Source of the DNA: a virus | Direction: 5' to 3' (one strand) | IMG/VR virus record: IMGVR_UViG_3300015263_000653 | Coordinates: 1 to 64,000 of that record | DNA: 64,000 bases | Shown here: positions 7,889 to 50,034 of the stretch, piece by piece | Position numbering within the stretch: position 1 is the first letter of the stretch | Layout of the letters: each line of letters starts with the position of its first letter | Made by a program: the position numbers and the translations under genes | The notes under the pieces: model-generated | What the model was told of the DNA's origin: nothing | The model's input: only the letters and a program-made list of their open reading frames with translations | The model's database searches: none

Positions 7889-8254
7889 ATGTTTGACCGA
7901 CTGGATATGTCGCCTCGCCGCTTCGCTCGAATGCAAAAGTTGGAATGCGGGGCAAAAGTCCCCAATCCCGACAAGCCGATGGTTCATCCCACTGAGTTTG
8001 GGCCAGACCGGGCGCAGGAGATCGCCGACGCTGCTCATGCCGCCACAACGTGTGGCCCGTGGGTTGACCAGATTGAAGACCAGATGACCGATGGCGAACT
8101 CGTGTTCGTGCTGGTGATTTGGGATCGCCTCAGCGGTAGCTCTTGCTGGATGGATGCGTTCAATCGTATCTGGCGGGGCGAAGTGCAGGCAATGCGAGAC
8201 TCGGAACGCGCCGCACCTGCCGCCTATGCCGCCGCAATGGCGAAACTCGACTAA
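7889..8254 (+). CDS. hypothetical protein (array cassette)
   Basis: leader + SD; stop in repeat. Confidence 0.85.
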   Translation: MFDRLDMSPRRFARMQKLECGAKVPNPDKPMVHPTEFGPDRAQEIADAAHAATTCGPWVDQIEDQMTDGELVFVLVIWDRLSGSSCWMDAFNRIWRGEVQAMRDSERAAPAAYAAAMAKLD

Positions 8255-8300
8255 CACCCGCTTGGCATCTGTCACAACACAACACACAGGAGATCGAGCC

Positions 8301-8603
8301 ATGTGGGACAAGAATTCAAAGCGTTATCACTTGGGAATCCAAGCATCGGGACACAACCTCTACGAACGTGCCCGATTGTCGGTTTACAACTCATCCAACG
8401 GCAAACTCGAAATTCACGGGTTCGCCATCGGTGGGCAGGACGTGGAAATGATCTACGACCTGTACCTGTCTCGGAGGGATGAACGCAAGCCGACCAAAGA
8501 ACAAATCTCTTTTGTGATTGCCTTCATCTTGGGCATCGCAGAAGGATCGGACCAGCGGACACGGTTGACCGGCAATGGACTGCCGGGACGATACTCCCAC
8601 TAA
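8301..8603 (+). CDS. hypothetical protein (array cassette)
   Basis: leader + SD; stop in repeat. Confidence 0.85.
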   Translation: MWDKNSKRYHLGIQASGHNLYERARLSVYNSSNGKLEIHGFAIGGQDVEMIYDLYLSRRDERKPTKEQISFVIAFILGIAEGSDQRTRLTGNGLPGRYSH

Positions 8604-8650
8604 CACCCGCTTGGCAAGAGTCAACACAACACACTCTTTCGGAGATCGCC

Positions 8651-9115
8651 ATGACTGGTGACGAATTGAAAAAGCAACTGGCCGAAAAGTATCCGCAGAT
8701 CGGTTTGACCTTCGGATACATCGGCAACCTCGAACGCTGGGGTGATGATCGCTCGTGGTATTTCTTCACGAAGGTCCGTCCGCCGCAAAGTGACAACTGC
8801 CTGTCGTTTGGTAGCTGTCGCACCGATAAGCTGGACGAGTTTATCGCCAAGGCTGAACGAGAACTGGAGAACTGGATTGTCGAGCGGGTACTCCCGCACG
8901 CCGAACACGTCTATCGCAGTTTTGACGTGGTTGTGCCGTTGCATGTCGCTCCCATCGTGGAAAAGACCCTCAAGGCGCATGGAGCAAGTTTCGGTATGCG
9001 TGGTGGTGGTCGCTTCAGTTTCTCGTTGCAACACAAAACCCTCGAAGATATTCGAGAGATCGTTACGGGTCTGGTGGGAACCGAAGGCGTGACGGTCGAG
9101 CCGTCTCGCTGGTAA
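8651..9115 (+). CDS. hypothetical protein (array cassette)
   Basis: leader + SD; stop abuts repeat. Confidence 0.85.
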   Translation: MTGDELKKQLAEKYPQIGLTFGYIGNLERWGDDRSWYFFTKVRPPQSDNCLSFGSCRTDKLDEFIAKAERELENWIVERVLPHAEHVYRSFDVVVPLHVAPIVEKTLKAHGASFGMRGGGRFSFSLQHKTLEDIREIVTGLVGTEGVTVEPSRW

Positions 9116-9132
9116 ACACCCGCTTGGAACAT

Positions 9133-9209
9133 GCCCGGCTGACCGGGCCGGTGATCGACGCCAGTACAAAAATTGTACCGGGCTGTGATCCAATGCCAGT
9201 CAGCCGGGC
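9133..9209 (+). other. non-coding hairpin cassette
   Basis: GCCCGGCTGAC…GTCAGCCGGGC closes the unit between two repeats and encloses GTACAAAAATTGTAC. Confidence 0.7.
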
Positions 9210-9259
9210 CTCTAACACCCGCTTGAAACGAGAACACAACACACTACTAGGAGATCGAG

Positions 9260-9673
9260 ATGACGAAGCCAGAATTCGCCGCCCTGTCAGGATGGGCAAT
9301 CGCTGAACACTTCGGTTGCCAATACTACGGCGATGGTTCGCCAGTCCCGCATGGTGGTGTCTTCTATGACATGCGAGATTGGCAACGATACGGATATGCC
9401 AACGTGGTCAACATCTACAAAGACCCCGAAGGCGAGCCGATTATGACCGTCGAACGTGGCACGCTCAACAAGCCAGAGGACATGCAATCGGCATTCGATT
9501 GTGCTGGTACGCCGAAAGATCAGTACGACAATCCAGCCGCTCAGATCGAAGCCGTCTTCGCCGCCTGTGGTGTCGAACCCGATTCGGTCAACCCGTGGTC
9601 CTACTTCCCCATCGACGACGAAGATCGGTTGTGGGAAGAGACCGAGCAAGACCTGAAATTGCTCGGTAGCTAA
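9260..9673 (+). CDS. hypothetical protein (array cassette)
   Basis: leader + SD; stop in repeat. Confidence 0.85.
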   Translation: MTKPEFAALSGWAIAEHFGCQYYGDGSPVPHGGVFYDMRDWQRYGYANVVNIYKDPEGEPIMTVERGTLNKPEDMQSAFDCAGTPKDQYDNPAAQIEAVFAACGVEPDSVNPWSYFPIDDEDRLWEETEQDLKLLGS

Positions 9674-9715
9674 CACCCGCTTGATGGGAAACAACACACC
9701 ACTGGAGACCAACAA

Positions 9716-10102
9716 ATGACAAAGCCGTTTGTCCTGTATCGCAACACTAAGAGTCGTGTGGAACACGAACGAGAAGAAGAAGTGATGGATCGCATGGAAG
9801 CCGATGCGGAGATCATCGACTTTGAAGAGTTTGCAGAGAACTGTGAATTCAATGAAGTCGCTGAACAACTCGGCTATGGTGATGACCTGCCGCTGGCCGA
9901 TGATTGGTCTGTCAGCTTCAGCAAGAGCCAGTTCGGCGGATTGCCCTGCTTCATCCTCGGACACACAGAGTGTGATTTCATCTTCCTCAAACCGGAAGAC
10001 GCAAACATGCTCGGCGAACATCATGGTCAAGCCGCCGAAGGGATGACCGACATGGAATGGAAACGTCACACCGGTTACGGCAAGACTGGCCTCGACCCCT
10101 AA
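9716..10102 (+). CDS. hypothetical acidic protein (array cassette)
   Basis: leader + SD; stop in repeat. Confidence 0.85.
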   Translation: MTKPFVLYRNTKSRVEHEREEEVMDRMEADAEIIDFEEFAENCEFNEVAEQLGYGDDLPLADDWSVSFSKSQFGGLPCFILGHTECDFIFLKPEDANMLGEHHGQAAEGMTDMEWKRHTGYGKTGLDP

Positions 10103-10120
10103 CACCCGCTTGGAGATCAG

Positions 10121-10429
10121 ATGAACGTCAACATCACGGTAACTTGCCCAAAGCACAACATGATCGTCAATCCCCGGTATGTCACCGAACAACTGGAGAA
10201 ACGAATGTTCCAGATGCCGGGCGGGTTTCGGTTCCGACTGCAACAATGCCTGCCCTATCCGGGCGAGCCGTTTGAGAACAAGACATTGCAGTTCACCAAT
10301 ACTGTGCCGGTTGGCAGGATTCGTGACAACGCCCAGCGAACACCCACTTTCAAAGAGCAGCGAACACGCTTCGCCTTCAACATCGGAGATAACCAAGTCT
10401 CCGTGAGCACTGACCCCGAATCACAATAG
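10121..10429 (+). CDS. hypothetical protein (array cassette)
   Basis: SD overlaps the repeat end (TTGGAGA). Confidence 0.75.
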   Translation: MNVNITVTCPKHNMIVNPRYVTEQLEKRMFQMPGGFRFRLQQCLPYPGEPFENKTLQFTNTVPVGRIRDNAQRTPTFKEQRTRFAFNIGDNQVSVSTDPESQ

Positions 10430-10437
10430 GAGAACGG

Positions 10438-10851
10438 ATGAAACCGAACCCCGGACAACACGTCACTTGCTTGCATGAAATGGCCGCTTACTACTCCAAC
10501 TATGGACCGAACAAAGGCCGACATATCATCTTCCGGCCCGGCATGGTGGGAGTCGTTCACAGCATCACCCCCAAGGTGACACTGCCCAAGCGTGGCACAC
10601 CACTGCCGCCCGGCATCGACCGGAAAGATGAATTCGCCGTGGTCGATTACTTCGACGAGAACAACGAACCGCAACGGGTTGGCTTGAACTTCTGCAACGT
10701 GGTTATCGCTGAACTGCCCCGCAACACTTGCCCCGATTGTGGTGCGCCCAATCGTCCAGACAATGGCGAGCAACTTCATTACGTCAATTGTCCGCATCAC
10801 ACCAAGTGGGTCTTGAAAAGAATTCGACGACGCAAAGCGGCGAAAGCGTAA
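10438..10851 (+). CDS. hypothetical protein with C-terminal CxxC…H…C motif
   Basis: AGGAG SD; stop in repeat. Confidence 0.8.
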   Translation: MKPNPGQHVTCLHEMAAYYSNYGPNKGRHIIFRPGMVGVVHSITPKVTLPKRGTPLPPGIDRKDEFAVVDYFDENNEPQRVGLNFCNVVIAELPRNTCPDCGAPNRPDNGEQLHYVNCPHHTKWVLKRIRRRKAAKA

Positions 10852-10870
10852 CACCCGCTTGTGAAGTGTG

Positions 10871-11042
10871 AGAGAGTGAGCAGGGGGTTGGCCGGTTGTA
10901 TCGGACAATCCTCAAGTCTGCTGAAAGCTCTGCCTGAAGTGCGCACTAGGCTACTTTGGTGAACGTGACCGAAGGAAAAGGTAGATCAGCGGAAGGGATT
11001 GGCATAAACGGGTCGATTCCCGTAACTCCCTGCCCACTCTCT
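10871..11042 (+). ncRNA. tRNA-like structured ncRNA candidate
   Basis: Closing stem AGAGAGTG-GCAGGGGGTT/AACTCCCTGC-CACTCTCT; T-arm-like ACGGG-TCGATT-CCCGT; nested internal helices; no + strand ORF. Confidence 0.6.
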
Positions 11043-11092
11043 AACACCCGCTTGTGAAGCGTACAACACAACAACTTTCACTGGAGATCGCA

Positions 11093-11437
11093 ATGAGCCG
11101 TCGAATCACAATCACTTTCGATGTCGTGGATGAAGAGTCAGCCGCCCAAGGCGACTTCGCCGAAACCGGCTGGATTGACGAAGAGGGAGTGGAGATCACC
11201 CCCGATGAGTATGACCTCGACGATGCCGATGGCGATGAGATCGCCGCCGTGGTCGAACTCGCCAAGAAAACCATTCTCCAGAACGGTTGTGTCGAACCAT
11301 CGTCCAGCCAGTTCCATACCGGAGTCTGGTACACGCAAGTTGACTGCCCGATGGGAGAGGAACGCTATTCGTTCCACCTGAACGACTTCCTCCCCGAAGA
11401 GGAAGAGGCAGTTTACAACGCAATCACCGCCAACTAA
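11093..11437 (+). CDS. hypothetical acidic protein (array cassette)
   Basis: leader + SD; stop in repeat. Confidence 0.85.
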   Translation: MSRRITITFDVVDEESAAQGDFAETGWIDEEGVEITPDEYDLDDADGDEIAAVVELAKKTILQNGCVEPSSSQFHTGVWYTQVDCPMGEERYSFHLNDFLPEEEEAVYNAITAN

Positions 11438-11455
11438 CACCCACTTGGAGGATAC

Positions 11456-12037
11456 ATGAGCCAACTCGAAACACTGGTGAACCGACTGAACCGCCAACTG
11501 GCAGAAATCAATGCCCTCGTGCGGTTCAAGTACGCCCCTCGCAACAACTATGCCGCCGTCGATGAATTCGACGTGGACGTGGACGGGAATCGGACAAGCA
11601 CCGGCGACCGAAACGTGGCCTGCGGCACTCGCACCGAAGTCACCGACAAAGTGCAGGAACGGTATGAGGAACTGTTTGACACCCGCTTGGGAGAAGTCGA
11701 AGCCCTGCGGGATCGCTTGACCAAGATCAAGGCCAAAGCACGATTGAAATATCTGCGTGGCGAGATCGAAGCCGAACGCATCAGCTACGGCGAGATCGCA
11801 GAACTGCAATCGCTGGTGGAACACATCGACGATGGCGATGTTCTGCTGCTGGAGTGGGCTGGTGTCCCTGAGTTTCCCCCGGATACCGCTCCCTGCCTCG
11901 GTTGCGGTATCACACAAGTCGCTGTCGAAATCCTCGATAACGGTGGCGTGCCGGTCAATCGGTATCGCATCAAGTTGCCCGAATCGTGCGAAGTCAACAT
12001 CGACGAAGAGAACGGCGAAATCATCATCGACAACTAA
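11456..12037 (+). CDS. hypothetical protein containing an internal repeat copy
   Basis: GGAGG SD; in-frame DTRL at 11677. Confidence 0.8.
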   Translation: MSQLETLVNRLNRQLAEINALVRFKYAPRNNYAAVDEFDVDVDGNRTSTGDRNVACGTRTEVTDKVQERYEELFDTRLGEVEALRDRLTKIKAKARLKYLRGEIEAERISYGEIAELQSLVEHIDDGDVLLLEWAGVPEFPPDTAPCLGCGITQVAVEILDNGGVPVNRYRIKLPESCEVNIDEENGEIIIDN

Positions 12038-12082
12038 CACCCGCTTGAACAGCGTCAACACAACCCATAACAGGAGACCCAC

Positions 12083-12328
12083 ATGACACAGAATGGCCCC
12101 ACAGTGATCGCTGGCGAACAGAATGTCCGCAACGCCCGTGTTCTGGCACTGCGGAGTATGCTCGGCCTCGAAATCAAGGGACTGGGCCGACGTGGGCGAA
12201 GTGCCTACTCCATCGTCAAAGAGGAATTCGGCTTCAAGGGCGGCAAGCAAAAGGTCTATGACCAACTGGACGCCCATATCAAGGCGAATATCCTGCCCGA
12301 TCCGCCCACTGAGGCAACGACCGAGTAA
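12083..12328 (+). CDS. hypothetical protein (array cassette)
   Basis: leader + SD; stop in repeat. Confidence 0.85.
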   Translation: MTQNGPTVIAGEQNVRNARVLALRSMLGLEIKGLGRRGRSAYSIVKEEFGFKGGKQKVYDQLDAHIKANILPDPPTEATTE

Positions 12329-12372
12329 CACCCGCTTGGCAACCGTCAACACCAATCAACAGGAGAACAACA

Positions 12373-12696
12373 ATGTCCTTTGGAACGACGGTTGCCGATG
12401 CACTGAGAACCGCTGGATTCAACGTCACCGACGTTTACCAGTACGAATTTCGCTCGGTCGATATTGAGATTGGCGAAGAGTCGCTGACGTTCGGACTGCA
12501 ACACGATGGAACGGTGACGTGGCATGATTTCACTCACACCACTGTCATCGCTCCCATCGACAAGCCGGATGAACTCGTCGCCGCCTTCACCGAACTTCTC
12601 CCGCTAAGGGACGAAGCCCTGCAAGAGTGGATCGCAAGCCGCAAGTGGGAAACGCAAGAGCAACACCCGCTTGGACAACACAACACACCTTACTGA
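12373..12696 (+). CDS. hypothetical protein (reads through a CAAC repeat variant)
   Basis: SD; C-terminus QHPLGQHNTPY is encoded by repeat and leader. Confidence 0.8.
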   Translation: MSFGTTVADALRTAGFNVTDVYQYEFRSVDIEIGEESLTFGLQHDGTVTWHDFTHTTVIAPIDKPDELVAAFTELLPLRDEALQEWIASRKWETQEQHPLGQHNTPY

Positions 12697-12712
12697 GAAC
12701 AGGAGATCGCTT

Positions 12713-13102
12713 ATGTCAAGTCCGATTCGTCACCGCCTCTGCCGAGACGTTTGTTTCTCTCAAATCGTCGGAGCAATGCGGGATCGCTGCAACGCCCACT
12801 GGCTGGTCGATGCCATCGCTTCTCACCTGCAAGCCGGGAAGGAATTCAAGGCCGCTTGTGAGAAAGATGAACGCTTCCGTGATATGTCCATCTGGATTCT
12901 GCGGAAGACCGGCGACAGCACCGCCGAACTGATCGCCGTCGCTGACACCGACGCCGCATCCATGCGAAGGCCCGCCGTTCGTCAAGAGATTGAGCACACC
13001 GATTTCCCCTTCGACATTGAGGGGCAATACAAGTGCTACGCCTGCTGGACGATGATCGACGACAAGCCCTGCTATTACATCATCGACCCCAAGGAATACT
13101 AG
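12713..13102 (+). CDS. DUF6876-like phage protein
   Basis: WLVDAIASH…W.L…QEIE.TDFP motif, recognised from memory. Confidence 0.6.
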   Translation: MSSPIRHRLCRDVCFSQIVGAMRDRCNAHWLVDAIASHLQAGKEFKAACEKDERFRDMSIWILRKTGDSTAELIAVADTDAASMRRPAVRQEIEHTDFPFDIEGQYKCYACWTMIDDKPCYYIIDPKEY

Positions 13103-13177
13103 GGCAACACCCGCTTGGAAGACACCGGGGAGAATCGTCTCCCCGGTCATTCCAAAAATTGTACTGGAGAACAACGC

Positions 13178-13429
13178 ATGAAGACGATTTACCTGCTCAT
13201 GTGGGAAGGTCAACTTGGCGGTGGTGGCGGTGGCGGTTTTGAATGGCATCCAGAAAAACAGGTCATGGTCGAAACCCTTGCGAACTTTCTCCGCACCGGC
13301 CCCAAAAAGACCTACTACTGGGAGTTTGAGATCAAAGTCCCGTCCACGGCAACCGAGGATGAAATCAACGAGATCATCGAAAATCGGGCTGAGGAACTCC
13401 AAAACAGCAAGGTCGCCAGCCGGGTTTAA
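13178..13429 (+). CDS. hypothetical protein (array cassette)
   Basis: SD; stop in repeat. Confidence 0.8.
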   Translation: MKTIYLLMWEGQLGGGGGGGFEWHPEKQVMVETLANFLRTGPKKTYYWEFEIKVPSTATEDEINEIIENRAEELQNSKVASRV

Positions 13430-13471
13430 CACCCGCTTGGAAAACAACACAACACCTTTCAGGAGATCGCC

Positions 13472-13693
13472 ATGAACGATTTGCTCGCTGTAATCTTCTC
13501 GCCTGTCGCTCTCAGTGATGAAAAGCTGAGAGAACTGTCGGAGCATGGTATCAAAACCGGCACGGTTGTCGTCGCCGGTTGCGAAGACCGACAATGTTTC
13601 TGGACTCCACCCGGCTCGCCGCCTACCGTCGTCTGGAAGTCGGAAGACGAAGCCCAACAATGGATGGACGAATCGTTGCTCGGAGCGGGGTAA
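13472..13693 (+). CDS. hypothetical protein (array cassette)
   Basis: leader + SD; stop in repeat. Confidence 0.8.
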   Translation: MNDLLAVIFSPVALSDEKLRELSEHGIKTGTVVVAGCEDRQCFWTPPGSPPTVVWKSEDEAQQWMDESLLGAG

Positions 13694-13741
13694 CACCCGC
13701 TTGAACAACGTACAACACACACAACACTGGAGAACAAAACC

Positions 13742-13969
13742 ATGCTCGTTCGTGACTGGGAAGGGAAAATGGTCGAAGCCCCCGCCGACCTCAAGATTGC
13801 CGTCGCAACCTACTCCGACAATTACATCGTCTGGAGTCGCACCGGCAAGCGTCATCAAGTGCGGTATGGGCTGGAAGTCACCCCCTGCGGCAACGCCAAC
13901 GATGCCGCTCACAAGTTTGGTGAGTGTGTTCAACACTTCGCCGCCTGCGAAGGGAAGCTGGACGACTAA
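13742..13969 (+). CDS. hypothetical protein (array cassette)
   Basis: leader + SD; stop in repeat. Confidence 0.85.
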   Translation: MLVRDWEGKMVEAPADLKIAVATYSDNYIVWSRTGKRHQVRYGLEVTPCGNANDAAHKFGECVQHFAACEGKLDD

Positions 13970-14014
13970 CACCCGCTTGTAGAGAAACAACACAACACCT
14001 TTCAGGAGATCGCC

Positions 14015-16345: not shown

Positions 16346-16463
16346 GTGACACCCGCTTGGGAAGCGTGAGGCAAACGCCGCCCTGCCTCACGCTTCCCAA
16401 CTCTTTCATCTAACACCCGCTTGGGAAGCGTACAACACACAACACCTTTTACTGGAGATCGCA

Positions 16464-23879: not shown

Positions 23880-23964
23880 CACCCGCTTGTAACCTACTCA
23901 GTAACTCGAAGAGTTACTGAGTAGGAAACTGGGAACCAACAAACACCCGCTTGGAGAACGACGA

Positions 23965-24216: not shown

Positions 24217-24326
24217 CACCCGCTTGTCAACCATCTGAGTAACTCTTCGAGTTACTCAGATGGGAAGCGGGACTGAGAGAACACCCGCTTGGAAGTCAAC
24301 ACAACACAACTTTTGGAGACAAGCCA

Positions 24327-25667: not shown

Positions 25668-25748
25668 GGGGCAGTGTGAGAAGTGAGTCCTGTGTCCGAA
25701 AGGGCAACGTAACTGCGAATTAACGCACGCCGTTCTCACACTGCCCCT
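25668..25748 (+). other. non-coding hairpin cassette
   Basis: GGGGCAGTGTGAGAA…TTCTCACACTGCCCC 15-bp stem, then TTTT and the next repeat. Confidence 0.75.
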
Positions 25749-25881
25749 TTTTAACACCCGCTTGTGGTGTATGAGGGAAAGGCAAAAGGCACTCTGAGAA
25801 CCCTACGGGGGGAATGAGAGAATCCCACGCCAGAGCCGTTGTGTCTGGGACACAGCCCCTCTAACACCCACTTGGAGGACA

Positions 25882-30360: not shown

Positions 30361-30472
30361 CACCCGCTTGGAAGGTGTTGAGAGGGTGCTGTCTGGAGGC
30401 GACAGCCAAGTGTCACCCAGTCTCAGGTGAAACAGCCCGATCAACACCCGCTTGTAAAGTGTCACCGGTGGC

Positions 30473-30680
30473 AAGGACGACCGGGGAGAACACTGAGACA
30501 ACCGATTAGCCCACCGCTACCTACTGTCTTTACCGAAACTGCTGTGACAGCCGCCAGTCTGATGACGGGTTTACCGTACCTTGGCCGAGGCGTTGTCCAC
30601 TGGAAACGGCGACAGCAAAAGTAGGCAGAGTGGACGGTGTGCGAATCGAGTCTCAGTGAAGTATCCCCGGTCCTCTCCTT
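30473..30680 (+). ncRNA. rod-shaped structured ncRNA candidate (~210 nt, 6S-like size and shape)
   Basis: Nested pairs AAGGA/TCCTT, GACCGGGGA/TCCCCGGTC, CACTGAGAC/GTCTCAGTG, CGATT/AATCG, CACCG/CGGTG, CCTACT/AGTAGG, TGCTGT/ACAGCA, CCAGT/ACTGG; ends at the next repeat (30681). Confidence 0.65.
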
Positions 30681-30729
30681 CAACACCCGCTTGTACAACG
30701 TAACAACAACACCTTCTGAGGGCCACAAG

Positions 30730-31155: not shown

Positions 31156-31284
31156 CACCCGCTTGGAGAGTGTCAGCCAACAACCCCTCAGTTACTCTTT
31201 GAGTAACTGAGGGGGAGCGGCTGGCCGGGACCAACACCCGCTTGGACCGTGTTAAGACCACAACACCTTTTTGGAGATCGAGTC

Positions 31285-31857: not shown

Positions 31858-32008
31858 CACCCGCTTGGAAAGTGTCGAGAGGGGGACGACAACCCCTCTC
31901 GCTCTTTCCTCTCTCTCACTCTCAACTGCGAGTGAGTGAGAGGGGAGAGACAGACTAACACCCGCTTGTAAGTTGTGAGAGGACACAACACTAACCGAAA
32001 GGGATCGA

Positions 32009-32467: not shown

Positions 32468-32913
32468 CACCCGCTTGTATTATGTAAGAGGGACACATGA
32501 CTCACTCGCTGAATCGCAGCGAGTGAGTGTGTTGCAAAAATTGTAATTGAGAAACTCTCAATTTTTTTTGTGCCATGTGGCCCATGGGGGAGGCACCCCC
32601 GCCGCTATGTCACCCCCCTCTCTTATATTAACAAGAAGAAATTTTTCAGACGCCTGCGCAGCAAAAACCGAAACTCCGAAACTTCTTTGGAGTGAGGCTA
32701 TATCTCAGAAAAGGAGAAGAAAGCGATGTTGCAAAAAATCCGCCGACAGAAAATCGTCGCACGCATATTGCGAGCGGTAGCCGAAGAAACTCAAGAGCCG
32801 TCTCTTCAGCAGATGAAAGAGGTGGCAGCCCTCGCCTGCAAGATTGCGGCGAAGGTCCATCCAGATCCGAAGCATCGGTGCGAGCACTGCGAACGACGGC
32901 AGCGTCAGTACGC

Positions 32914-39752: not shown

Positions 39753-40336
39753 TCGTCGTATCTTTCGGTTCGATAGTCTTCGCCTTCCACGACTGGTCGT
39801 GGGGTCGGCCAGATTCTTCTCAGTGCAGTCATGAGATCACAGCCGCACCATGGAAGTTTGATTTCGGCAGGCTGGTTGTTCTTGTCTCTCAGCCAGACGA
39901 GGATTCGGTCGGACTGGTTGTCGCAGTAGTGGCATTTGGCTCGACGGGCCTTTGCTGCTTCTCGGACCTGATCCAGTTGTGCGAGGACGACGGACGATTG
40001 AGTGGCGATCTCTTTCTCCAGAGTCCCCAGAGCGATAGCGGCAGAGAGGAGGATATTGGAGTTGGTGGGTTCGTGTCGAATGGATTCGAAAAGGTTTCGA
40101 GCCCACTTCTTGACTATTGGGTTGTCCAAACCTTCGACGATCTGTTCGAGACTGTTGGAGTCTTCTACGATCTCCAATCCATCCCTGAGTGGAATGGATG
40201 CGTCATCATGTCCATCGATTTCGGTCCAGAGGCCGTTGTTCATCAGCCAAACATCCTTGCCGTTCCGCACGCCGTGGACGAATGGATGATCTTGATAGGG
40301 AAGCTTGCAAATTTGTATGTCAGTGACTTGGCTCAT
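39749..40336 (-). CDS. hypothetical protein
   Basis: coupled operon. Confidence 0.75.
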   Translation of the reverse strand: MSQVTDIQICKLPYQDHPFVHGVRNGKDVWLMNNGLWTEIDGHDDASIPLRDGLEIVEDSNSLEQIVEGLDNPIVKKWARNLFESIRHEPTNSNILLSAAIALGTLEKEIATQSSVVLAQLDQVREAAKARRAKCHYCDNQSDRILVWLRDKNNQPAEIKLPWCGCDLMTALRRIWPTPRPVVEGEDYRTERYDE

Positions 40337-41466
40337 CGGGTAACGCCTCTCAATTCATGCCAATGTAAAACGTGGAAGTCATAGCACGCCGCTTCCAGAG
40401 CGGACGAGTAGCGGCCATGACGGAACGAAACTGACTCCATGCCTCGTTGGACTGATTCGCAGATATCCACGTCTTGGCGTTGGATCAGATGGCTGCTTGC
40501 CATGTCTTGCCGCATTCTCTTCTGCGACTGCCAATCTTCCATGTTGTCGTAGGCGAAGAAGAAGTCGAAGATGACTCGGCACTTGTTGACGCCGAGCGGC
40601 TCCACGATGTTGATGTCCATCATGTTGCCGTACCTATTAACGAACAGGTTGGGATAGAGGTAGCAGTAGGCGACGGTATCGCCGAGCCGCTTATCTTTCC
40701 CGTGCGTCTTCGTCATCTGCACCGACGATCTGTCGAACAGCTTAACTTCGAACTCATTGAGGTCGAGTTCTGCTGCGAGTTGTTCATGGGCGTAGAGGCA
40801 GTGGTAGCATCCGTCGAGGCTGTTATCAACGAAGACCTTCCAGTTACAGTTCATCGTGTAGACTTCACGATGAAAGAACTTGAGGTTGTTCCAGCCGGTG
40901 GGTTCAAGGATGGCATCCAAGTCCTTCACATCTTCAGCGAGGGACCGAGGGTTGTTCTCCCCCTTGATTGTTTTGCCATCGAGATCGAGGAAGACGAGTG
41001 GTCCCCAAGTATCGACAGCGATGGGTTGTAGGCCGTAGCGTGCCGTGTTGAAGCTCACCTGTTTACCCAGCATGGGAGCTTTCTTCAGACGGCCATCGTG
41101 GTGATATTCCCAGCCATGAAAGGGGCATTGGAAGAAGGCACACGATTGCCTGCCTGCGTGTTCGGATTCGGCGACGACGGCTCCCTTGTGTCGGCAGACG
41201 TTGTGGTGGGCGTAGATTTCGTTGTCTTCTTCGTTCCTGACGACAACGTAGGGGTTGCCTACGATGTCGCCGGTGAAGTAGCGACCCGGCTTGTTGAGTT
41301 GATCGAGGCGACCGACTGGGAGCCAGAGTCGTTGGAAGATTCGGGCCATCTCCTGTTCGTAGAAACCCTGATCGGTGTACCAAGTGTACGGGGGCGTGCG
41401 GCTGTCTTCGAGTCCCCGTTTCGGATCGAACTGATCGAGGAGTTCATCGAACTGTTTGAAGGCCAT
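40333..41466 (-). CDS. Rieske non-heme iron oxygenase alpha subunit (choline monooxygenase-like)
   Basis: NVCRHKG…CPFHGW Rieske ligands; NWK.FVDN.LDGCYHC.YAH mononuclear Fe site; QD..ICESVQRG. Confidence 0.92.
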   Translation of the reverse strand: MAFKQFDELLDQFDPKRGLEDSRTPPYTWYTDQGFYEQEMARIFQRLWLPVGRLDQLNKPGRYFTGDIVGNPYVVVRNEEDNEIYAHHNVCRHKGAVVAESEHAGRQSCAFFQCPFHGWEYHHDGRLKKAPMLGKQVSFNTARYGLQPIAVDTWGPLVFLDLDGKTIKGENNPRSLAEDVKDLDAILEPTGWNNLKFFHREVYTMNCNWKVFVDNSLDGCYHCLYAHEQLAAELDLNEFEVKLFDRSSVQMTKTHGKDKRLGDTVAYCYLYPNLFVNRYGNMMDINIVEPLGVNKCRVIFDFFFAYDNMEDWQSQKRMRQDMASSHLIQRQDVDICESVQRGMESVSFRHGRYSSALEAACYDFHVLHWHELRGVTR

Positions 41467-41470
41467 GGCA

Positions 41471-41728
41471 TCATCCTTGATTTGGGTGAACGGTAATCAG
41501 TTCTTCGACAAATTGATAACGGCACAAGCGGATCGTCTTGCCATAGGCGTTGGCTTGAGCCTGCATCTGGGCACGGAGTGGTTCCATCTTGTGCAGATCT
41601 TTGGCGGCGAGTGGAATGCAACCGGCTGGAACGAGTCCAGCCTTGATGCCGACTTCCCCGGAGCCAAGTTCATCTTCGCCGATCCAAGCGAAGATTTCCA
41701 TGTCTTGGAAGTGTTCTGCATCAGCCAT
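41471..41728 (-). CDS. hypothetical protein
   Basis: operon position. Confidence 0.7.
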   Translation of the reverse strand: MADAEHFQDMEIFAWIGEDELGSGEVGIKAGLVPAGCIPLAAKDLHKMEPLRAQMQAQANAYGKTIRLCRYQFVEELITVHPNQG

Positions 41729-42029
41729 GAAACCAACTCCAGTAGAGAAGTGTTCCGAGGATGCCCGTCAGGATTACAATTTTTGCGATGAGTAGTTTGC
41801 GGCGACGGCGTTCAAACTCATCGACCTGACTGAAGGGGACGTGGTATTCGTGGCCGAGCGAATCTTTGTAGATGACGCACGGCTCACAGCGATGCGTCAT
41901 GATCGGGACGTTCTTTGCCCCGCAGTTGGTGCAATCGCCATTGAGCATGTTTTCTCCGTCAGATTTCATGTTTACAAAAAAGGCAAAAGGTTCTGTGGGT
42001 TGATCATCCGGTTCGACGGCTGCGATCAT
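41721..42029 (-). CDS. hypothetical protein with C-terminal TM
   Basis: CTNC…C; hydrophobic tail. Confidence 0.65.
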   Translation of the reverse strand: MIAAVEPDDQPTEPFAFFVNMKSDGENMLNGDCTNCGAKNVPIMTHRCEPCVIYKDSLGHEYHVPFSQVDEFERRRRKLLIAKIVILTGILGTLLYWSWFHG

Positions 42030-42408
42030 TGTGGTCTTCCGTGTCTTTACTGTCCAATCTTTCTAAAGCGGACTGCCAGAACGTCTGGAAGTCGAGAGGG
42101 GATTCGTCTTCGGGCAAAGGCCCAATGAGTTCGAGGGCTGTGGTGGCGTCCATCACCAGTTCTTCTGAGTCGCCACTGAGAGCTTCGTTGTATCCATGGA
42201 CGAGTTTCTGGGCGACCTGTTGCAGCACTGCTCGATCTCGGTTGATTCTGTCGTTCAGAACTTCGCCGACGATCTCGATCAGCGTCTTGTGTTCATAATC
42301 CTCAACACCTCGCCCGGCGAGTTGGTGGTTGCGAAACCTTTCGGCTTCGTTCTCGTGACGGCAAACGATTTCACGAGCGAGTGCGGCGATGGTGTTGGCA
42401 GCATCCAT
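42004..42408 (-). CDS. hypothetical protein
   Basis: GAGG SD. Confidence 0.7.
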   Translation of the reverse strand: MDAANTIAALAREIVCRHENEAERFRNHQLAGRGVEDYEHKTLIEIVGEVLNDRINRDRAVLQQVAQKLVHGYNEALSGDSEELVMDATTALELIGPLPEDESPLDFQTFWQSALERLDSKDTEDHNDRSRRTG

Positions 42409-42463
42409 TTAGTAACCTCTTTCCTTCATAATGTTGATTCGGTAGTTGGGCGGAAATCGGGTC

Positions 42464-42868
42464 TCAGCATTCGTGTTCGTTGACGAGGACTCCAGCGGCT
42501 CTACATTTCAAACAGTTGCCTGTGAGTCGTTGTTCTTCGTCAAGTCCCAGATTGTTAAAGCGTGTGGCCTTGTAGTCTTCTCCTTCCAGATCATCGAGTC
42601 GTTTATTGATAGCCGTGTGCAAGAGGTTGGAAGTCTCTCGCAGGTAGGCGACGATCTTTCGGAATTGTTCTTCGGTTTCAAATGGGACACGAACGAACTT
42701 GACCTTGGAATCAGACAGCCGCCATTCGCAGATCATGTCCATCTCGACGACTTTGAGATGGTTGCTATTATCGTCTTCCTCGAAGGCCGAGTAGACGGGG
42801 AAGTATCCATCCGGGTTTTGGATGAAGTGCTTCTCGAAGTCGTCGAATTCAATTGTGTCACGTCTCAT
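42464..42868 (-). CDS. hypothetical protein
   Basis: coupled operon. Confidence 0.7.
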   Translation of the reverse strand: MRRDTIEFDDFEKHFIQNPDGYFPVYSAFEEDDNSNHLKVVEMDMICEWRLSDSKVKFVRVPFETEEQFRKIVAYLRETSNLLHTAINKRLDDLEGEDYKATRFNNLGLDEEQRLTGNCLKCRAAGVLVNEHEC

Positions 42869-43107
42869 TTGAAAATCACCGTCAGAAATTGTCCCACTAC
42901 GCAACCTATGATGACCATGATGGAAAAGAATACAAGTGTGAGGACAAAGCCTGTGCGGCTCAATCCTTTCTTATGAAATTCCACAACTTGATCCATCTGC
43001 TCACGATCCAGATGTTGCGTGACGATGAAGAAGTTGTATTGTTGCTCGTTGATCTGTCCCGTCGCATATCTGAATGCGAGTTCGATATCAACTTTTGGAT
43101 TGCTCAT
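42865..43107 (-). CDS. small membrane protein
   Basis: C-terminal TM; GGAGG SD. Confidence 0.7.
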   Translation of the reverse strand: MSNPKVDIELAFRYATGQINEQQYNFFIVTQHLDREQMDQVVEFHKKGLSRTGFVLTLVFFSIMVIIGCVVGQFLTVIFK

Positions 43108-43282
43108 CCGTTTCGCCTCCTTGCGGTTCTTCTCTGGAGTTGCATTCTCCTTTGTCGAGGTTCACATTCTTCTCAAGACCTTTGCGGCATCCGGCGAACT
43201 TGTCACGGCCATCGAGGCGAAATTTGCCATCGATATAGGCGGCGTGGGCACAACCGTCGCAAATGGTTTCGAGTTCGGTCAT
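43088..43282 (-). CDS. small Cys protein
   Basis: GGAGG SD; CDGC…C…C. Confidence 0.6.
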   Translation of the reverse strand: MTELETICDGCAHAAYIDGKFRLDGRDKFAGCRKGLEKNVNLDKGECNSREEPQGGETDEQSKS

Positions 43283-44250
43283 TGGTCCTCCATTGCTTTC
43301 ATCGAATCACGCATACGGCGAATCTCCCGAACGGCCTGATCGTCTTGGGCTTCAGTGGCGGCTCGTTCGAGAGCGTCAAGTTGTTCCATCATTTCTTCGG
43401 GGCTGGCGATGATCATCGGACTGCGAGCGGCCATTGCTTTCTCATAAGTGTCGGCCATGTCGGTCATGAATTCCTCGAAGGAATTACCGATGGTCAGAAC
43501 TTCCATGACGATGAAGTCTTGGTTGAGAAGTTGCCGACGAGTAGCGATCTCCATTTGCTTTGCGAACTTGGCGGGATCGGTGATCCCAAAGATTTTGAAA
43601 GCGGCTTGGGCTTGAGGGTCTTCGAAGATGCTGGGTTGCGCCATGATGGCTTTGAGTGAGCAGGGGACGATACCAGAGATCACGGCTTCCGGCACGTTGT
43701 TGTTAGCCCGAGCTTCTTCGAGTTCCTCTTCTTCCATGATGGGGCAATCGAGCATTTCTTGATTGTGCTCTGGCATCCAGTTGAACTCGACGCCGCCGTC
43801 TTTGCCGTGATAGTCGTATGGGTAGCTGCCCATGAAGAAGCGGCCATCTTCTGAGAGGTAATGGACGCAGAGGCAGTCGGCGATTTCGCCGAGAGAGCAG
43901 GCCCCTTCTTCGTCACATGCTCTCTGCATGGAGCCGGGTTTGCCAGCGTACTTCTCATAGAGACGCTGGACTTCTTCGGGGCTCTTGCCGTTGGTGAGGA
44001 TGGTATGTCCGTCTGTGACAAGAATGACGGAGTTGATACCCAAGCCACGCCGAAGAATGTTGCAGGCGTTCAGCCCTTCGTACTTATCGAGTTGCGGGGC
44101 GACTACTAAGAGAGTCGGCTTCCCGTCTTTGATGCCAACGACAGTGGGGTTCATATCGCCCCGCTGTGTTGAATGCACCCAAGCCATCTTATGATGTTTG
44201 GCGAGCCTCACGAACTCCTGAAAGTTGAAGAGCGTGGCGTCGGTGGTCAT
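43279..44250 (-). CDS. hypothetical protein
   Basis: 323-aa ORF with SD. Confidence 0.85.
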   Translation of the reverse strand: MTTDATLFNFQEFVRLAKHHKMAWVHSTQRGDMNPTVVGIKDGKPTLLVVAPQLDKYEGLNACNILRRGLGINSVILVTDGHTILTNGKSPEEVQRLYEKYAGKPGSMQRACDEEGACSLGEIADCLCVHYLSEDGRFFMGSYPYDYHGKDGGVEFNWMPEHNQEMLDCPIMEEEELEEARANNNVPEAVISGIVPCSLKAIMAQPSIFEDPQAQAAFKIFGITDPAKFAKQMEIATRRQLLNQDFIVMEVLTIGNSFEEFMTDMADTYEKAMAARSPMIIASPEEMMEQLDALERAATEAQDDQAVREIRRMRDSMKAMEDQ

Positions 44251-44265
44251 CCTTCATCCTCCATG

Positions 44266-44523
44266 TCATCCGTCTTTGTTCACGTCAAAAGCGGTTGAAG
44301 TAATATGGGCGGGCCAATCAACTCGCTCCAAGACGCCACGAGTTTGCAGGGAGTCTTGAGTCAGTTCGTGCATAGCACGTTGATAGCCGTTGTAGATGGG
44401 GGTGAGCAACTGTGTGTTCGCCATGAGATGAGATTGCGGAGCTTTCCAGCCATGTATGGACACGAGGGCTTCGCAGACTCGATCAAAGAAATTGCCGAAC
44501 TCCATGTTGGTCTCCCATTCCAT
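44266..44523 (-). CDS. hypothetical protein
   Basis: GGAGATCGC SD. Confidence 0.75.
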   Translation of the reverse strand: MEWETNMEFGNFFDRVCEALVSIHGWKAPQSHLMANTQLLTPIYNGYQRAMHELTQDSLQTRGVLERVDWPAHITSTAFDVNKDG

Positions 44524-44600
44524 TGTTGTGCGATCTCCGAAATTCCACAGCCGCCCCCGCCCTCAGACCGAAGACGAGGGCGACTGGGATGGTGGGCAGC

Positions 44601-44927
44601 TTACACCATGTCCTTGAGACCCTTGAGGGGTCGGACCTTGACGACGTTGCGTGCCGGTTTGGCGGGTCGGTCTTGCAGTTCGCCGGTGAAGGGGTTCTTG
44701 ACGTTTTTCTGCGCCTTGACGGCGGGCTTGCGGACCCTGACGATTTTCACGAGGCCGGGAATGGTGAGTGCCCCGGCTCCTTTCCGTCCGCCGACTTCGG
44801 ACTGAACGACGTTGACGAGGGCGTCGAAGACTTCGCCGACCTGTCGTTTGTTGAGTCCGGTTTGGTCAGCAATCTGCGTGAGTAGCTGCGTCTTCGTCAA
44901 GGGGCGATTCTCGGTTGCAGTCGCCAT
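44601..44927 (-). CDS. hup: HU family DNA-binding protein
   Basis: LTKTQL…IA..TGL…IPGLVKI…KPA…NPFTGE…AKPA…VKVRPLK.LKDMV. Confidence 0.93.
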   Translation of the reverse strand: MATATENRPLTKTQLLTQIADQTGLNKRQVGEVFDALVNVVQSEVGGRKGAGALTIPGLVKIVRVRKPAVKAQKNVKNPFTGELQDRPAKPARNVVKVRPLKGLKDMV

Positions 44928-45050
44928 GGTCTGGGGTTCCTCCAAAGTGCCAAGTGTGAATACGATTGAGCAATACAATCGAGCCAAAAGCATTGTAAGG
45001 CACGGAATGAGGGCAGTAAAGCATAGATACTGAAAAACAGGAGGTTGTCA

Positions 45051-45503
45051 ATGTTTCGCAAACTGCTCACCATTTTGCTGTTTTCTACAATGCTTGTGTC
45101 CACCGGATGCGAGATGTTCAATCCGATTGGCCCCATCATCCAACTGGGGGTCATGTGGTACGAGGGCGAGGCTTCCAAGTATTACAACACCGATCAGGAA
45201 ACAATCCACATTGCGGTGAAGAAGGTTCTCAATGATCTTGAGTTCCCCATCACGAAAGAGACGAACGAGGGCGACTACATCTACATCATTGCTGATGCAG
45301 ATGATCGCTTCAAAATCAAGGTTCGAGAGGTTCGCCACAATGTGACGAAGTTGTCGATTCGCATCAACACATGGGGCGACCGGCCATATGCCGAAATGAT
45401 TTTCCGCCATGTGGATCGAGAACCAAAGGTTATTGACTTTGTGACAGTCGAAGAGTTGAACACCGCTCTCCAAGAAAGAAAGCGGGTTCGCCACAACAAG
45501 TGA
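45051..45503 (+). CDS. lipoprotein, DUF3568-like
   Basis: signal peptide with lipobox STGC; TKLSIRINTWGD. Confidence 0.65.
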   Translation: MFRKLLTILLFSTMLVSTGCEMFNPIGPIIQLGVMWYEGEASKYYNTDQETIHIAVKKVLNDLEFPITKETNEGDYIYIIADADDRFKIKVREVRHNVTKLSIRINTWGDRPYAEMIFRHVDREPKVIDFVTVEELNTALQERKRVRHNK

Positions 45504-45638
45504 TTCAGTCCAAAAGTTGGAACAGTGTCACGCACCCAGCGAGGAAGTTCAGGGCTCCAAGGCCGAGCAAAAGGCTTTGGAGCCATTTTTGTTGGATCTT
45601 CTTCTGATAGAAGTAGATCCAATAAGCCCAGCCGAAGT

Positions 45639-45860
45639 TCACGATGATGACAATGATGGGGAGCATCCTACTGCCCTTCTAATATGTTTCAAAATCTCCT
45701 CAGTTTCGGAGATGGTTAATGGTTTGCCGAAGAACACCATCAGTTCGCCCTTGACATGGGCGTAGTGACATTTGATTTCTCCGTTTGCGTCACAAACTTG
45801 GAAAGTCCGCTGATCGGAACCCAGACCACACAGGCTGGTGCTAGGGGTGATGCGTAGCAC
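45639..45860 (-). CDS. hypothetical protein
   Basis: GAAGGAG SD and GTG start overlapping the upstream stop region. Confidence 0.55.
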   Translation of the reverse strand: MLRITPSTSLCGLGSDQRTFQVCDANGEIKCHYAHVKGELMVFFGKPLTISETEEILKHIRRAVGCSPSLSSS

Positions 45861-45865
45861 GAGAG

Positions 45866-46456
45866 CTACTCCTTCATATCGGTGGCAATCCGCTGAGCAA
45901 GATCGACATCTTTCGTAGATGTCATAAGATCTTTCACATTGTCTGCACAGAAGCCATGTGCTCCCCTTTGTATGAACTCGTAGATCACTCCAGTCAACAT
46001 GCTTGGCTTGGTGAAGCACTGCACGAGGTCTGGGCATGTGAGAGGCTTCTCAGAAGTGAACTCGGCGTAGCCCAATTCTCTCCATTCTCTCATGGTGTCT
46101 TCTACGGATTCGACTTGGTAGGCGAGGTGGTGAATTCCGCCAACTCCCTGCCGTGCTGCGACCCACTTTCCAACGATGCTGTCGGAATCACCGTCTGAGA
46201 CAAAGATCTCAGGGGCCATATGAAACTCGGCGACAGGAAATGTGCCACCGGGATTGTCATGCCACAGGAAGTGTTTCCACGGTGCCATATCATGTGTGGG
46301 CTTCTCTGGTGGTTCCAGAGCGAAGCATTTGACGTGGCTTCCGTCATCGAAGTTGAGTTCGAATTCTGTTTGAACTCGATACCCAAAAGCGGCCTTAAAG
46401 AAATCGACTGTTTTGTGTCGGTCGGCGACTCGGTATGCGATATGATCTAATCTCAT
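45866..46456 (-). CDS. VOC/glyoxalase family protein (HPPD/methylmalonyl-CoA epimerase-like)
   Basis: LDHIAYRV…FF..AFG; GGIHHLAYQV; YEFIQR. Confidence 0.85.
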   Translation of the reverse strand: MRLDHIAYRVADRHKTVDFFKAAFGYRVQTEFELNFDDGSHVKCFALEPPEKPTHDMAPWKHFLWHDNPGGTFPVAEFHMAPEIFVSDGDSDSIVGKWVAARQGVGGIHHLAYQVESVEDTMREWRELGYAEFTSEKPLTCPDLVQCFTKPSMLTGVIYEFIQRGAHGFCADNVKDLMTSTKDVDLAQRIATDMKE

Positions 46457-47055
46457 TTTCCCTCCGCAGGTAATTGAGTTTGGCTCCGGTATTTCTCACC
46501 AAGAGCCACCAAAATTCCTGCGATGGCACCGCATAGATGGCCTTCCCAACTGATCGTCGGATCGCTGGGAATCATCCCGCTGACGAACGTGAAGGCGTTC
46601 AGGGAAAGCGTCATAAGAGCATAGAACAGAAGGGCTTCCTTATGATGGACGATGGCTCCCATGAGCATGTATGTCGTCAAGCCGTAGCAGAGAAGGCTGG
46701 CCCCGATATGGTCATGTGGGCGACCCATCAACCAGAGCAATGTTCCACCGAGAATGCAGATCTTGAAGATGACTTCCGGCATGTGGAACTCACCGTCGAA
46801 AGACAGGAACAGTGGGATGAGGACCAAGAAGATGCCGATGGAGTTGACGACGAGGTGGAGTAGATGGGCGTGCAAGAAGTGCATGGTGATGATTCCCAGC
46901 AAGCCGTCAAACTGTCTGGGGATTACGCCGTACTCTCTGAGATCGATTCCGAGCGGAATGAACATGACCGTTATGATGAAGACGGCCCACATGGCTTGGA
47001 CCAAACCCGCTGTTCTCAGCACTGCTACCAGAGCCCTCTTGGCTTTCTGTTTCAT
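46453..47055 (-). CDS. rhomboid family intramembrane serine protease
   Basis: FLHA..LHL..N; HIGAS; ISWEGHLCGAIAG. Confidence 0.9.
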   Translation of the reverse strand: MKQKAKRALVAVLRTAGLVQAMWAVFIITVMFIPLGIDLREYGVIPRQFDGLLGIITMHFLHAHLLHLVVNSIGIFLVLIPLFLSFDGEFHMPEVIFKICILGGTLLWLMGRPHDHIGASLLCYGLTTYMLMGAIVHHKEALLFYALMTLSLNAFTFVSGMIPSDPTISWEGHLCGAIAGILVALGEKYRSQTQLPAEGK

Positions 47056-47079
47056 CGTTCGCTTCCTTGCAAAAGTCAG

Positions 47080-47700
47080 TCAGTTGAAGTTCTCTCGAAG
47101 ATACTCAAGGCATTCTTGGGCGCACCGGCGAGTTGACGCAACGAGTTTTTCATCGTTGACATCGTGAATGGTGCCGTTGAGGTATTCACGATGTCGAATG
47201 GTTCCCAGCAGGTGTTGTGACGCATCATCCTCCCGTTGCTCCAAAGCATCTGTGAGATGGTGCAGACAGCCCATGACATGGTTTGCCCCGCAAGTCAAAT
47301 CATCCCGGCTGAGTTTGTCGGTGACTTCTTTGACGCCGAGAACGGTGATGTAAGCCAACAGGTGCTCGACCATGATTTGCCTTCCTCGTAGTTCTCGGTA
47401 TTCGAGAGGATTATCTTTGGCCCATTGTAGCATCAATTCACGCAACAGGGCCATCCGACTTTTGCCTTCGTCGGTTTCATTCCAACTTTTGCAACCTCCC
47501 ACACACCAGTCGGTATCGACTTGCGGGAGATCATCGTCGAACATTGCGTTTTGCAAGGCGTTCCGAGCTTCGGCCCCACCGAGGAGAGCGGCATTCAGCA
47601 TACAACACGGTCGGAGACAGTGAGTACACCGAATGACGCCCTTCTCGAAAGGAATCTTAAATGATCTCAGGGCCACGCCAGAACTCCAGCTTTTGGGCAT
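47080..47700 (-). CDS. hypothetical protein
   Basis: long ORF in operon; start uncertain. Confidence 0.7.
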   Translation of the reverse strand: MPKSWSSGVALRSFKIPFEKGVIRCTHCLRPCCMLNAALLGGAEARNALQNAMFDDDLPQVDTDWCVGGCKSWNETDEGKSRMALLRELMLQWAKDNPLEYRELRGRQIMVEHLLAYITVLGVKEVTDKLSRDDLTCGANHVMGCLHHLTDALEQREDDASQHLLGTIRHREYLNGTIHDVNDEKLVASTRRCAQECLEYLRENFN

Positions 47701-50001: not shown

Positions 50002-50034
50002 AAAAAGCCCCAGAGCGACTTCGCTCCGGGGCTC
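50002..50034 (-). terminator. intrinsic terminator
   Basis: AGCCCCAGAGCGA-CT-TCGCTCCGGGGCT preceded by an A-tract. Confidence 0.65.

Follow-up and report, generated by a model that had tools for sequence, protein, structure and literature searches.

A predicted, conserved RNA gene with a cloverleaf-like junction occupies one slot of a motif-delimited phage gene array

A motif-delimited array of small orphan genes in a tailed phage

The window analyzed here is the first 64 kb of the virus record IMGVR_UViG_3300015263_000653, which is 89,856 bp long and estimated by CheckV to be 18% complete, implying a genome of ~500 kb. Genes for a tape-measure-like protein, a baseplate spike OB domain and a P2 gpI-like baseplate protein lie in the right part of the record and identify it as part of a tailed phage. 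Among public runs, the DNA of this record is best represented in a marine sediment metagenome.

Around 32 kb of the record is taken up by an array of small orphan genes, with approximately one TAACACCCGCTTG motif per gene. The core of the motif, CACCCGCTTG, was found in 89 exact copies on the + strand between positions 1780 and 32468 and in none on the minus strand. Most copies in the array read TAACACCCGCTTG, with the TAA doubling as the stop codon of the preceding gene, and most slots between motifs contain one small orphan gene. Each copy is followed by a variable spacer of 6 nt and then, in 51 of the 89 cases, by GT; beyond this point lies either a hairpin or an AC-rich leader with GGAGATCGC-ATG. 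The genes of the array are presumably early genes. Their proteins and those encoded near the element described below have no relatives in IMG/VR contigs and belong to no Pfam or PHROG family. The TAACACCCGCTTG motif was absent from 24 related megaphage records (baseplate protein 37-61% identical), a motif scan of IMG/VR contigs returned single chance matches only, and our literature search retrieved nothing specific to the motif sequence or to phage tRNA-like RNAs.

The strict single orientation of the motif, its fixed 6-nt spacing to GT and the GT(G/C/A)AGAG-type starts of the structured slots led us to prefer reading it as a phage-specific promoter, with transcription probably starting at the GT. 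It might alternatively be a processing signal and, were it not a promoter, the RNA described below could belong to a longer transcript. Contigs assembled from a sediment metagenome of a different study (hereafter X5) fuse window junctions that are 0.6-2.6 kb apart (10116>12325, 11091>13691 and 12053>12662), joining the same motif to other genes, and the array is thus evidently reshuffled slot by slot between related phages. Within the window, adjacent junctions have an identical 6-nt spacer more often than random pairs (11% vs 3.7% of all pairs).

Several slots of the array are gene-free. The large one at 30455-30681 (+, 227 nt) is predicted to form a mostly rod-like fold of -96.3 kcal/mol, with a closing helix that spans motif to motif. 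Strong folds closed end to end were also observed in the gene-free slots at 9127-9213, 25669-25752, 31868-31956 and 32478-32640 (all +); several of these slot folds start with GT(G/C/A)AGAG just after the spacer, as does the RNA studied here, and the one at 25669-25752 ends in a T run resembling an intrinsic terminator. Near-identical palindromic hairpins of the form ..AGTAACTC-N3-GAGTTACT.. fill or start four slots (23899, 24237, 24710 and 26424, +), and a related hairpin is found at ~31180. A second type of leader occurs at 3251, 4785, 13126 and 19817 (+), where TCCAAAA(A)TTGTA lies between a hairpin CCGGGGAGA...TCTCCCCGG and the ribosome-binding site; the word AAAATTGTA is also present at 9168 and 32536. 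Beside the array, a block of cellular-type genes (40333-57616, mostly on the minus strand) encodes the alpha subunit of a Rieske/ring-hydroxylating oxygenase, an NAD-dependent epimerase/dehydratase, an M14 carboxypeptidase, an AAA ATPase, an RNase H-like protein, a histidine phosphatase and a rhomboid protease.

The slot that is the subject of this work (Table 1) has no open reading frame, the longest ORF starting with ATG being 0 aa. It is flanked by a 17-nt direct repeat (10850 and 11043). This repeat is nothing other than two adjacent copies of the array motif with the near-identical spacers TGAAGT and TGAAGC, so the RNA occupies a single gene slot, bounded by two motif copies as the gene slots are.

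Table 1. Parts of the RNA cassette and its two flanking junctions, in window positions.
Feature	Position	Strand	Basis
Upstream junction: (T)AACACCCGCTTG over the TAA stop of gene 10438-10851, spacer TGAAGT	10850..10867	+	motif count
Whole cassette as modeled in R1: from the post-spacer GT into the start of the next motif	10868..11045	+	fold
Closing helix, 5' strand: 8 bp, A10879 mismatch, 10 bp, the last 7 being the "acceptor" 10883-10889	10871..10889	+	fold
D-like hairpin CCGGT-TGT-ATCGG: 5-bp stem with one G.U, 3-nt loop UGU	10892..10904	+	fold, X5
Long central arm, 96 nt, in the anticodon-arm position: three stacked helices with internal loops between them	10906..11001	+	fold, X5
Helices of the central arm: CAATCCT/GGGATTG, TCTGCTGA/TCAGCGGA, TCTGCCT/AGGTAGA	within 10906..11001	+	fold
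Top of the central arm: small three-way branch, 2-bp hairpin 10941-10951, apical 7-bp hairpin with GAACGUG loop		+	fold
Linker GCAUAA, 6 nt, in the variable-loop position	11002..11007	+	fold
T-like hairpin: 5-bp ACGGG/CCCGU closed by G-C, 6-nt loop UCGAUU	11008..11023	+	sequence, fold
Closing helix, 3' strand: AACUCCC, UGC, C mismatch, CACUCUCU; no CCA encoded	11024..11042	+	sequence, fold
Downstream junction: next AACACCCGCTTG and spacer TGAAGC; standard leader GTACAACAC...GGAGATCGC, ATG of gene 11093-11437	11043..11060	+	sequence

Predicted fold of the cassette

The cassette had been picked out in a sequence-only reading of the window as a tRNA mimic at 10871-11042, with an acceptor stem and T-arm but a long insert in place of the anticodon. 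The sequence there is as described, and every helix named in that reading is present in the minimum free energy (MFE) structure of the + strand. For positions 10845-11065, this structure has a predicted energy of -91.9 kcal/mol (z -4.87), and none of 200 dinucleotide shuffles folded as well. The minus strand folds worse (z -2.89), and six G.U pairs of the + strand fold would become A.C mismatches on that strand; the strand specificity conferred by these six pairs points to RNA rather than DNA as the folding molecule.

The fold is entirely nested. GGGGGTT (10883-89) pairs with AACTCCC (11024-30) as had been proposed, one of the pairs being a G.U (10886/11027), and the T-arm-like hairpin ACGGG-TCGATT-CCCGT (11008-23) abuts this helix with no linker. 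The nested helices that had been placed in the anticodon position are borne out as the long central arm. An extra stem enclosing the whole had also been claimed. Its pairs do exist, the seven named pairs being followed by three more, an A/C mismatch (10879/11034) and eight pairs (10871-78/11035-42), but they do not form a separate stem: the same helix, 21 positions long in all, simply runs on outward, so the "7-bp acceptor" has no natural boundary.

Going round the junction, 2 nt separate the closing helix from the D-like hairpin, 1 nt leads on to the long arm, 6 nt connect this arm to the 5-bp T-like hairpin, and 0 nt lie between that hairpin and the closing helix. The tRNA-like topology of the earlier reading stood as far as cloverleaf connectivity and linkers (2, 1, 6, 0) are concerned, but the acceptor-like helix does not end after seven pairs and the tRNA signature nucleotides are absent. 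In a test on 1000 mononucleotide shuffles, a single closing helix combined with a four-way junction having tRNA-like linkers arose in 5 cases; a four-way junction of any kind formed in 91 shuffles, these 5 among them.

A second copy of the cassette among other genes

Alignment of Logan contigs to positions 8000-14000 of the window uncovered a second copy of the element. Three other runs yielded no contig over this locus, an outcome that carries no information on whether they lack it. A 2007-nt contig of X5 aligns to 10846-11054 at ~88% identity, differing by 13 substitutions and 11 gap letters. The contig sequence before the point corresponding to 10846 is unrelated to the window, and the next match to the window's leader is found ~690 nt further along the contig, joined to another junction (13691). 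With unrelated sequence upstream and different content downstream, the X5 cassette and both of its flanking motifs sit among other genes. The element behaves as a self-contained cassette, in support of the earlier reading: the same element lies between the same motifs and next to different genes.

The X5 variant was rebuilt by scripted edits to the window sequence. As two of the 13 substitutions were unlisted, probably near the ends of the aligned piece, the rebuilt variant is approximate near its ends. It has the same architecture as the window copy (-83.9 vs -79.4 kcal/mol), and the consensus fold of the two sequences reached -75.05 kcal/mol (z -7.9 against column shuffles). Ten of the 11 listed substitutions fall at paired positions and eight of these ten keep the pair. 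One change is fully compensatory (10909 U>C with 10998 A>G, converting U-A to C-G), G.U pairs become G-C at 10919, 10957 and 10982, and Watson-Crick pairs become G.U at 10972, 10987 and 10993. Pairs at helix ends are broken at 10980 and 10995, and a new C-G pair is created by 10916 G>C together with an inserted G. The indels are all of 1 or 2 nt, sizes that exclude a coding reading, and seven of the eight events are in loops or at loop edges. Randomizing the positions of the substitutions alone gave P ~0.2, which is not significant. With two copies known, support from covariation is thin and, given this P value, the case for a conserved fold rests on the combined points rather than on covariation statistics. 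The structure-preserving nature of the substitutions also makes decay unlikely.

The changes are unevenly distributed. All 11 listed substitutions and six of the eight indel events are in the central arm (10906..11001). The D-like loop has 5 nt in X5 vs 3 nt in the window and the linker in the variable position 5 nt vs 6 nt. Outside 10896 to 11005, the one listed change is a CT gained by X5 in the CT run of the closing helix (3' strand). No listed change falls in 10868-10896 (29 nt) or 11006-11036 (31 nt), while the middle differs at ~16% of positions. These unchanged blocks comprise the closing helix, the junction, the 5' strand of the D-like stem and the T-like hairpin with its loop. The sequence-only reading had named loss of the T-loop and acceptor geometry in homologs as evidence against itself; in the one homolog found, this geometry is precisely the unchanged part.

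These data bear on the possibility that the element acts as DNA, as a recombination site, an origin or a packaging signal folding as a cruciform or in single-stranded form. Its location at cassette junctions of an array that is reshuffled between related phages would suit such a role, as would the 17 nt that its own two junctions have in common and the elevated sharing of spacers by neighboring junctions noted above. However, the six G.U pairs form on the + strand only and three of them are "repaired" to G-C in X5, the minus strand folds much worse, and no such structure is found at any of the other array junctions. We regard a DNA-level function as highly improbable. An integron attC site in particular was rejected, the other array junctions having no inverted repeat. 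A bridge or guide RNA for recombination of the cassettes was also considered and set aside, as by eye the loops are not convincingly complementary to the motif and no recombinase is encoded nearby.

A role in cis was also considered, in which RNase III-type cleavage at the long, imperfect closing helix, or a block to transcription imposed by it, would separate modules of a polycistronic early transcript. RNase III sites separate the early genes of T7, and a closing helix of 21 positions with one internal mismatch could be a substrate of this kind. Other gene-free slots of the array hold simple motif-to-motif hairpins (16360-16401, 23893-23925, 24231-24263, 25669-25746 and 31166-31226), which a covariance model of the cassette (R1, see below) matches through the outer helix only. 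Those simple hairpins suffice elsewhere in the array, yet in this slot the junction sequence does not vary and the 96-nt arm and two additional hairpins persist across ~12% divergence, and there is no U-run after the element. The form of the cassette is, moreover, constant while both neighbors change, and an element that stays unchanged beside new neighbors is not serving a particular gene pair. A cis-acting element is therefore quite unlikely in our view.

Searches for further homologs

Further copies were sought with R1, a single-sequence covariance model of 10868..11045, and with sequence patterns. Run with filters off over positions 1-34000, R1 recovered hairpins only, via the outer helix, and no paralog; the rod-like slot at 30455-30681 gave no R1 match. 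A blastn search of 10400-11500 against a phage collection returned no match, and exact-pattern scans of IMG/VR contigs with pieces of the RNA gave either 0 or only chance matches, R1 being negative on three candidate loci. In GTDB genomes, one pattern had 0 matches and another had 15, all negative with R1 and Rfam and attributable to chance. A 19-mer scan of JGI metagenome contigs led to five loci, none of them homologous; only two, on high-GC contigs, gave weak partial R1 matches, which cover a T-like hairpin. An exact 19-mer of the T-like hairpin, with the 6-nt loop, was noted at L192:2395-2493 and L193:7885-7966 (minus strand; high-GC contigs, JAABUQ...) in a small hairpin-rich context with R1 scores of 15-19 bits, and these loci are probably an unrelated repeat.

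No R1 match was obtained in the 24 related phage records whose baseplate protein is 37-61% identical. As relatives at this distance have neither the motif nor the RNA, the element is restricted to a clade and could be dispensable.

Relationship to tRNA, tmRNA and Y RNA

The sequence-only reading had compared the element to the tRNA-like domain of tmRNA and to bacterial Y RNAs and proposed ARAGORN and Rfam as checks. Neither likeness held as class membership, and the roles suggested there, a decoy for tRNA-targeting defenses or a mini-tmRNA, are speculative. At default settings ARAGORN called 0 genes, tRNA or tmRNA, across the window or the full 89.9-kb record, and its tmRNA mode was negative even at -ps80. 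Rfam 15 gave 0 families at the gathering threshold in the 64-kb window, and at E<=10 on a 501-nt slice the only match was a sub-threshold chance similarity of the outer helix to MIR156, with no match to the tRNA, tmRNA or YrlA families. A TROVE (Ro60) gene was also sought and gave no match in the 89.9-kb record, which covers ~18% of the genome; the neighboring genes are orphans, and RtcB was not found in the record. A phi29-type pRNA, a ribozyme and a riboswitch were likewise set aside for lack of an Rfam match. By every test available, the element fails to qualify as a tRNA, a tmRNA or a Y RNA.

The intron mode of ARAGORN reports the element only at -ps80, as "tRNA-Leu(CAA)" with a 79-nt intron. 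The same setting yields 343 "tRNAs" in 89.8 kb, in addition to a spurious one on the opposite strand of the element, and the match is therefore noise. This output nevertheless raises the possibility that the element is a decoding tRNA gene whose anticodon loop is interrupted by a long insert, or the decayed remnant of such a gene, and introns that lack an explanation do occur in tRNA genes of megaphages (PMC6784885). A split gene of this sort is not what the details suggest. The would-be anticodon loop (10911-10916) is not conserved between the two copies, X5 having CA added after 10912 and G>C at 10916, and the tRNA invariants U8, A14, G18G19 and the 7-nt T-loop are absent, positions 8-9 being GG. 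The body is not recognized as a tRNA even with an insert allowed, whereas the tRNAs of Lak phages could be typed with the eukaryote mode of tRNAscan (PMC6784885). A remnant is in turn unlikely given the structure-preserving changes in X5. Altogether, we give a split or decayed tRNA gene very little credence.

A more serious competitor is a true tRNA mimic that is matured as a tRNA. The transcript would be cut by RNase P 5' of G10883 and by RNase Z or an exonuclease after U11031, and would receive CCA, possibly from a phage enzyme. The product would be a decoy or substrate for host factors that recognize tRNAs, such as anticodon nucleases, tRNA-targeting defenses or synthetases. The linkers and the coaxial stack of 7 and 5 bp fit a cloverleaf, in an arrangement reached by 5 of the 1000 shuffles, and the module formed by the acceptor, T-like and D-like parts is what remains unchanged in X5. 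There are precedents: in M. smegmatis, RNase P cleaves YrlA, which also acquires CCA (PMC4201824), and pairing between leader and trailer lengthens the acceptor stem of mascRNA (PMC8457004). The record also encodes a divergent class-II nucleotidyltransferase (62692-64194, minus strand), 500 aa long, that has a PolyA_pol head domain and whose best PHROG family is named tRNA nucleotidyltransferase.

Set against this are the negative tRNA, tmRNA and Rfam results, which extend to the local search at E<=10, and the fact that ARAGORN responds only at the threshold where matches abound. The T-like loop, UCGAUU, has 6 nt in both copies vs the canonical 7-nt UUCRANN, so that the U54-A58 T-loop motif cannot form in register, even if the closing G-C pair is present. 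The D-like loop (UGU in the window, AUGUA in X5; 3 or 5 nt) lacks the GG that would make the elbow contact, and position 8 is a G. While the linkers and the 5-bp T-like stem are those of a cloverleaf, the acceptor-like helix has no free end: it continues for 11 more positions beyond the 7 bp, leaving no unpaired leader and no discriminator or CCA, and CCA is not encoded in the element. Its G.U is at 4:69, not at 3:70 as in the G3:U70 of tmRNA. The nucleotidyltransferase, finally, scores far under every NCBIfam equivalog cut-off, both CCA-adding and PcnB, and may serve ordinary tRNAs from the remaining four-fifths of the genome. The cloverleaf linkers, the pattern of invariance and the nucleotidyltransferase gene keep maturation as a tRNA alive as a minority reading, but a doubtful one.

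Proposed nature and role of the RNA

The element folds at the RNA level from the + strand, is conserved in a second phage and is independent of the genes that neighbor it. It is predicted to be a real, conserved and unclassified phage RNA gene with a cloverleaf-like junction, of which two copies are known. Our favored explanation, to which we assign a probability of roughly 60%, is that the element is a gene in its own right, encoding a stable, structured non-coding RNA of ~172-178 nt and forming one modular unit of the array.

Under this explanation, transcription would proceed rightward, like that of the surrounding genes, with the RNA probably starting at the GT six bases past the upstream TAACACCCGCTTG motif and probably ending at the next motif. 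Both ends would be clamped in the 21-position helix, which may protect the RNA. A surface recognized by a protein could be presented by the invariant module, in which the D-like hairpin and the T-like hairpin (6-nt loop) meet the closing helix at the four-way junction, and the fast-changing central arm, which keeps its structure, may be a spacer or a second platform. The most likely mode of action would be the binding, titrating or scaffolding of a host or phage RNA-binding protein during takeover. Since the elbow-forming loops and the T-loop motif are missing and the acceptor end is buried, we consider binding of a protein by a tRNA-shaped RNA more probable than genuine participation in tRNA pathways.

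A bolder proposal would make the element the first example of an undescribed class of non-decoding cloverleaf phage RNAs, carried as mobile cassettes in a promoter-punctuated array, matured by RNase P/Z with CCA added by the phage nucleotidyltransferase and used as decoys or scaffolds against tRNA- or RNA-directed defenses. This combination of features is unlikely.

On the favored explanation of a stand-alone RNA gene, the element would extend the huge-phage theme of odd tRNA-shaped genes to a case where all that is retained is the cloverleaf connectivity plus a junction module of invariant sequence, the tRNA signature nucleotides having been lost or never been present. It would also mean that RNA genes are treated as interchangeable units beside protein genes in a repeat-delimited array. 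A partner protein, if found, could reveal a new route of takeover or counter-defense. For now, what stands is a well-supported candidate RNA family of two copies rather than a mechanism.

Comparison with known systems

One parallel is offered by Lak and other huge phages, which carry tRNA genes with "enigmatic introns"; those of Lak have an assignable anticodon (Devoto et al. 2019, PMC6784885). Like the insert-bearing Lak genes, the element comes from a phage of ~500 kb and combines a cloverleaf with a long structured insert at the anticodon loop, and in both cases the insert is conserved between related phages. Unlike them, it has no recognizable tRNA body, its ends are sealed by an extended helix and its "anticodon loop" is variable.

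Y RNAs, which tether proteins and have been found in phages (Chen et al. 2014, PMC4201824), are similarly modular, with a long end-to-end closing helix and a module bearing D-like and T-like hairpins. Yrn1 of D. radiodurans has a stem-loop between the D and T arms, in the anticodon-arm position (PMC4201824), as the element does. However, YrlA keeps the tRNA invariant nucleotides and a modified T-loop, and its gene lies beside Ro60/TROVE (PMC4201824), whereas the element has non-canonical loops, no Rfam match and no TROVE gene in its 89.9-kb record. The mascRNA of MALAT1 is likewise cloverleaf-like, with an acceptor helix extended by leader-trailer pairing within a longer transcription unit (PMC8457004); it differs in being eukaryotic and in that its processing by RNase P/Z has been shown.

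The tRNA-like domain of tmRNA resembles the element in that a G-rich helix (GGGGG...) joins the two ends and stacks on a T-type hairpin, and a large insertion separates the halves. The element is shorter, ~175 nt vs ~350, and has no tag reading frame, pseudoknots, G3:U70 or CCA. T4 encodes two stable RNAs of ~120-140 nt with paired ends and no known function, species 1 and 2 (rnaC/rnaD), whose genes belong to the tRNA cluster and which are processed together with its tRNAs. They share with the element the putative character of a phage-encoded stable RNA with paired ends, but no tRNA gene is present in the element's 89.9-kb record.

The element thus fails the tests that define Lak tRNAs, tmRNA, Y RNAs and mascRNA while sharing a topology with each of them, and it can be placed, loosely, among the tRNA-shaped or small stable RNAs of phages.
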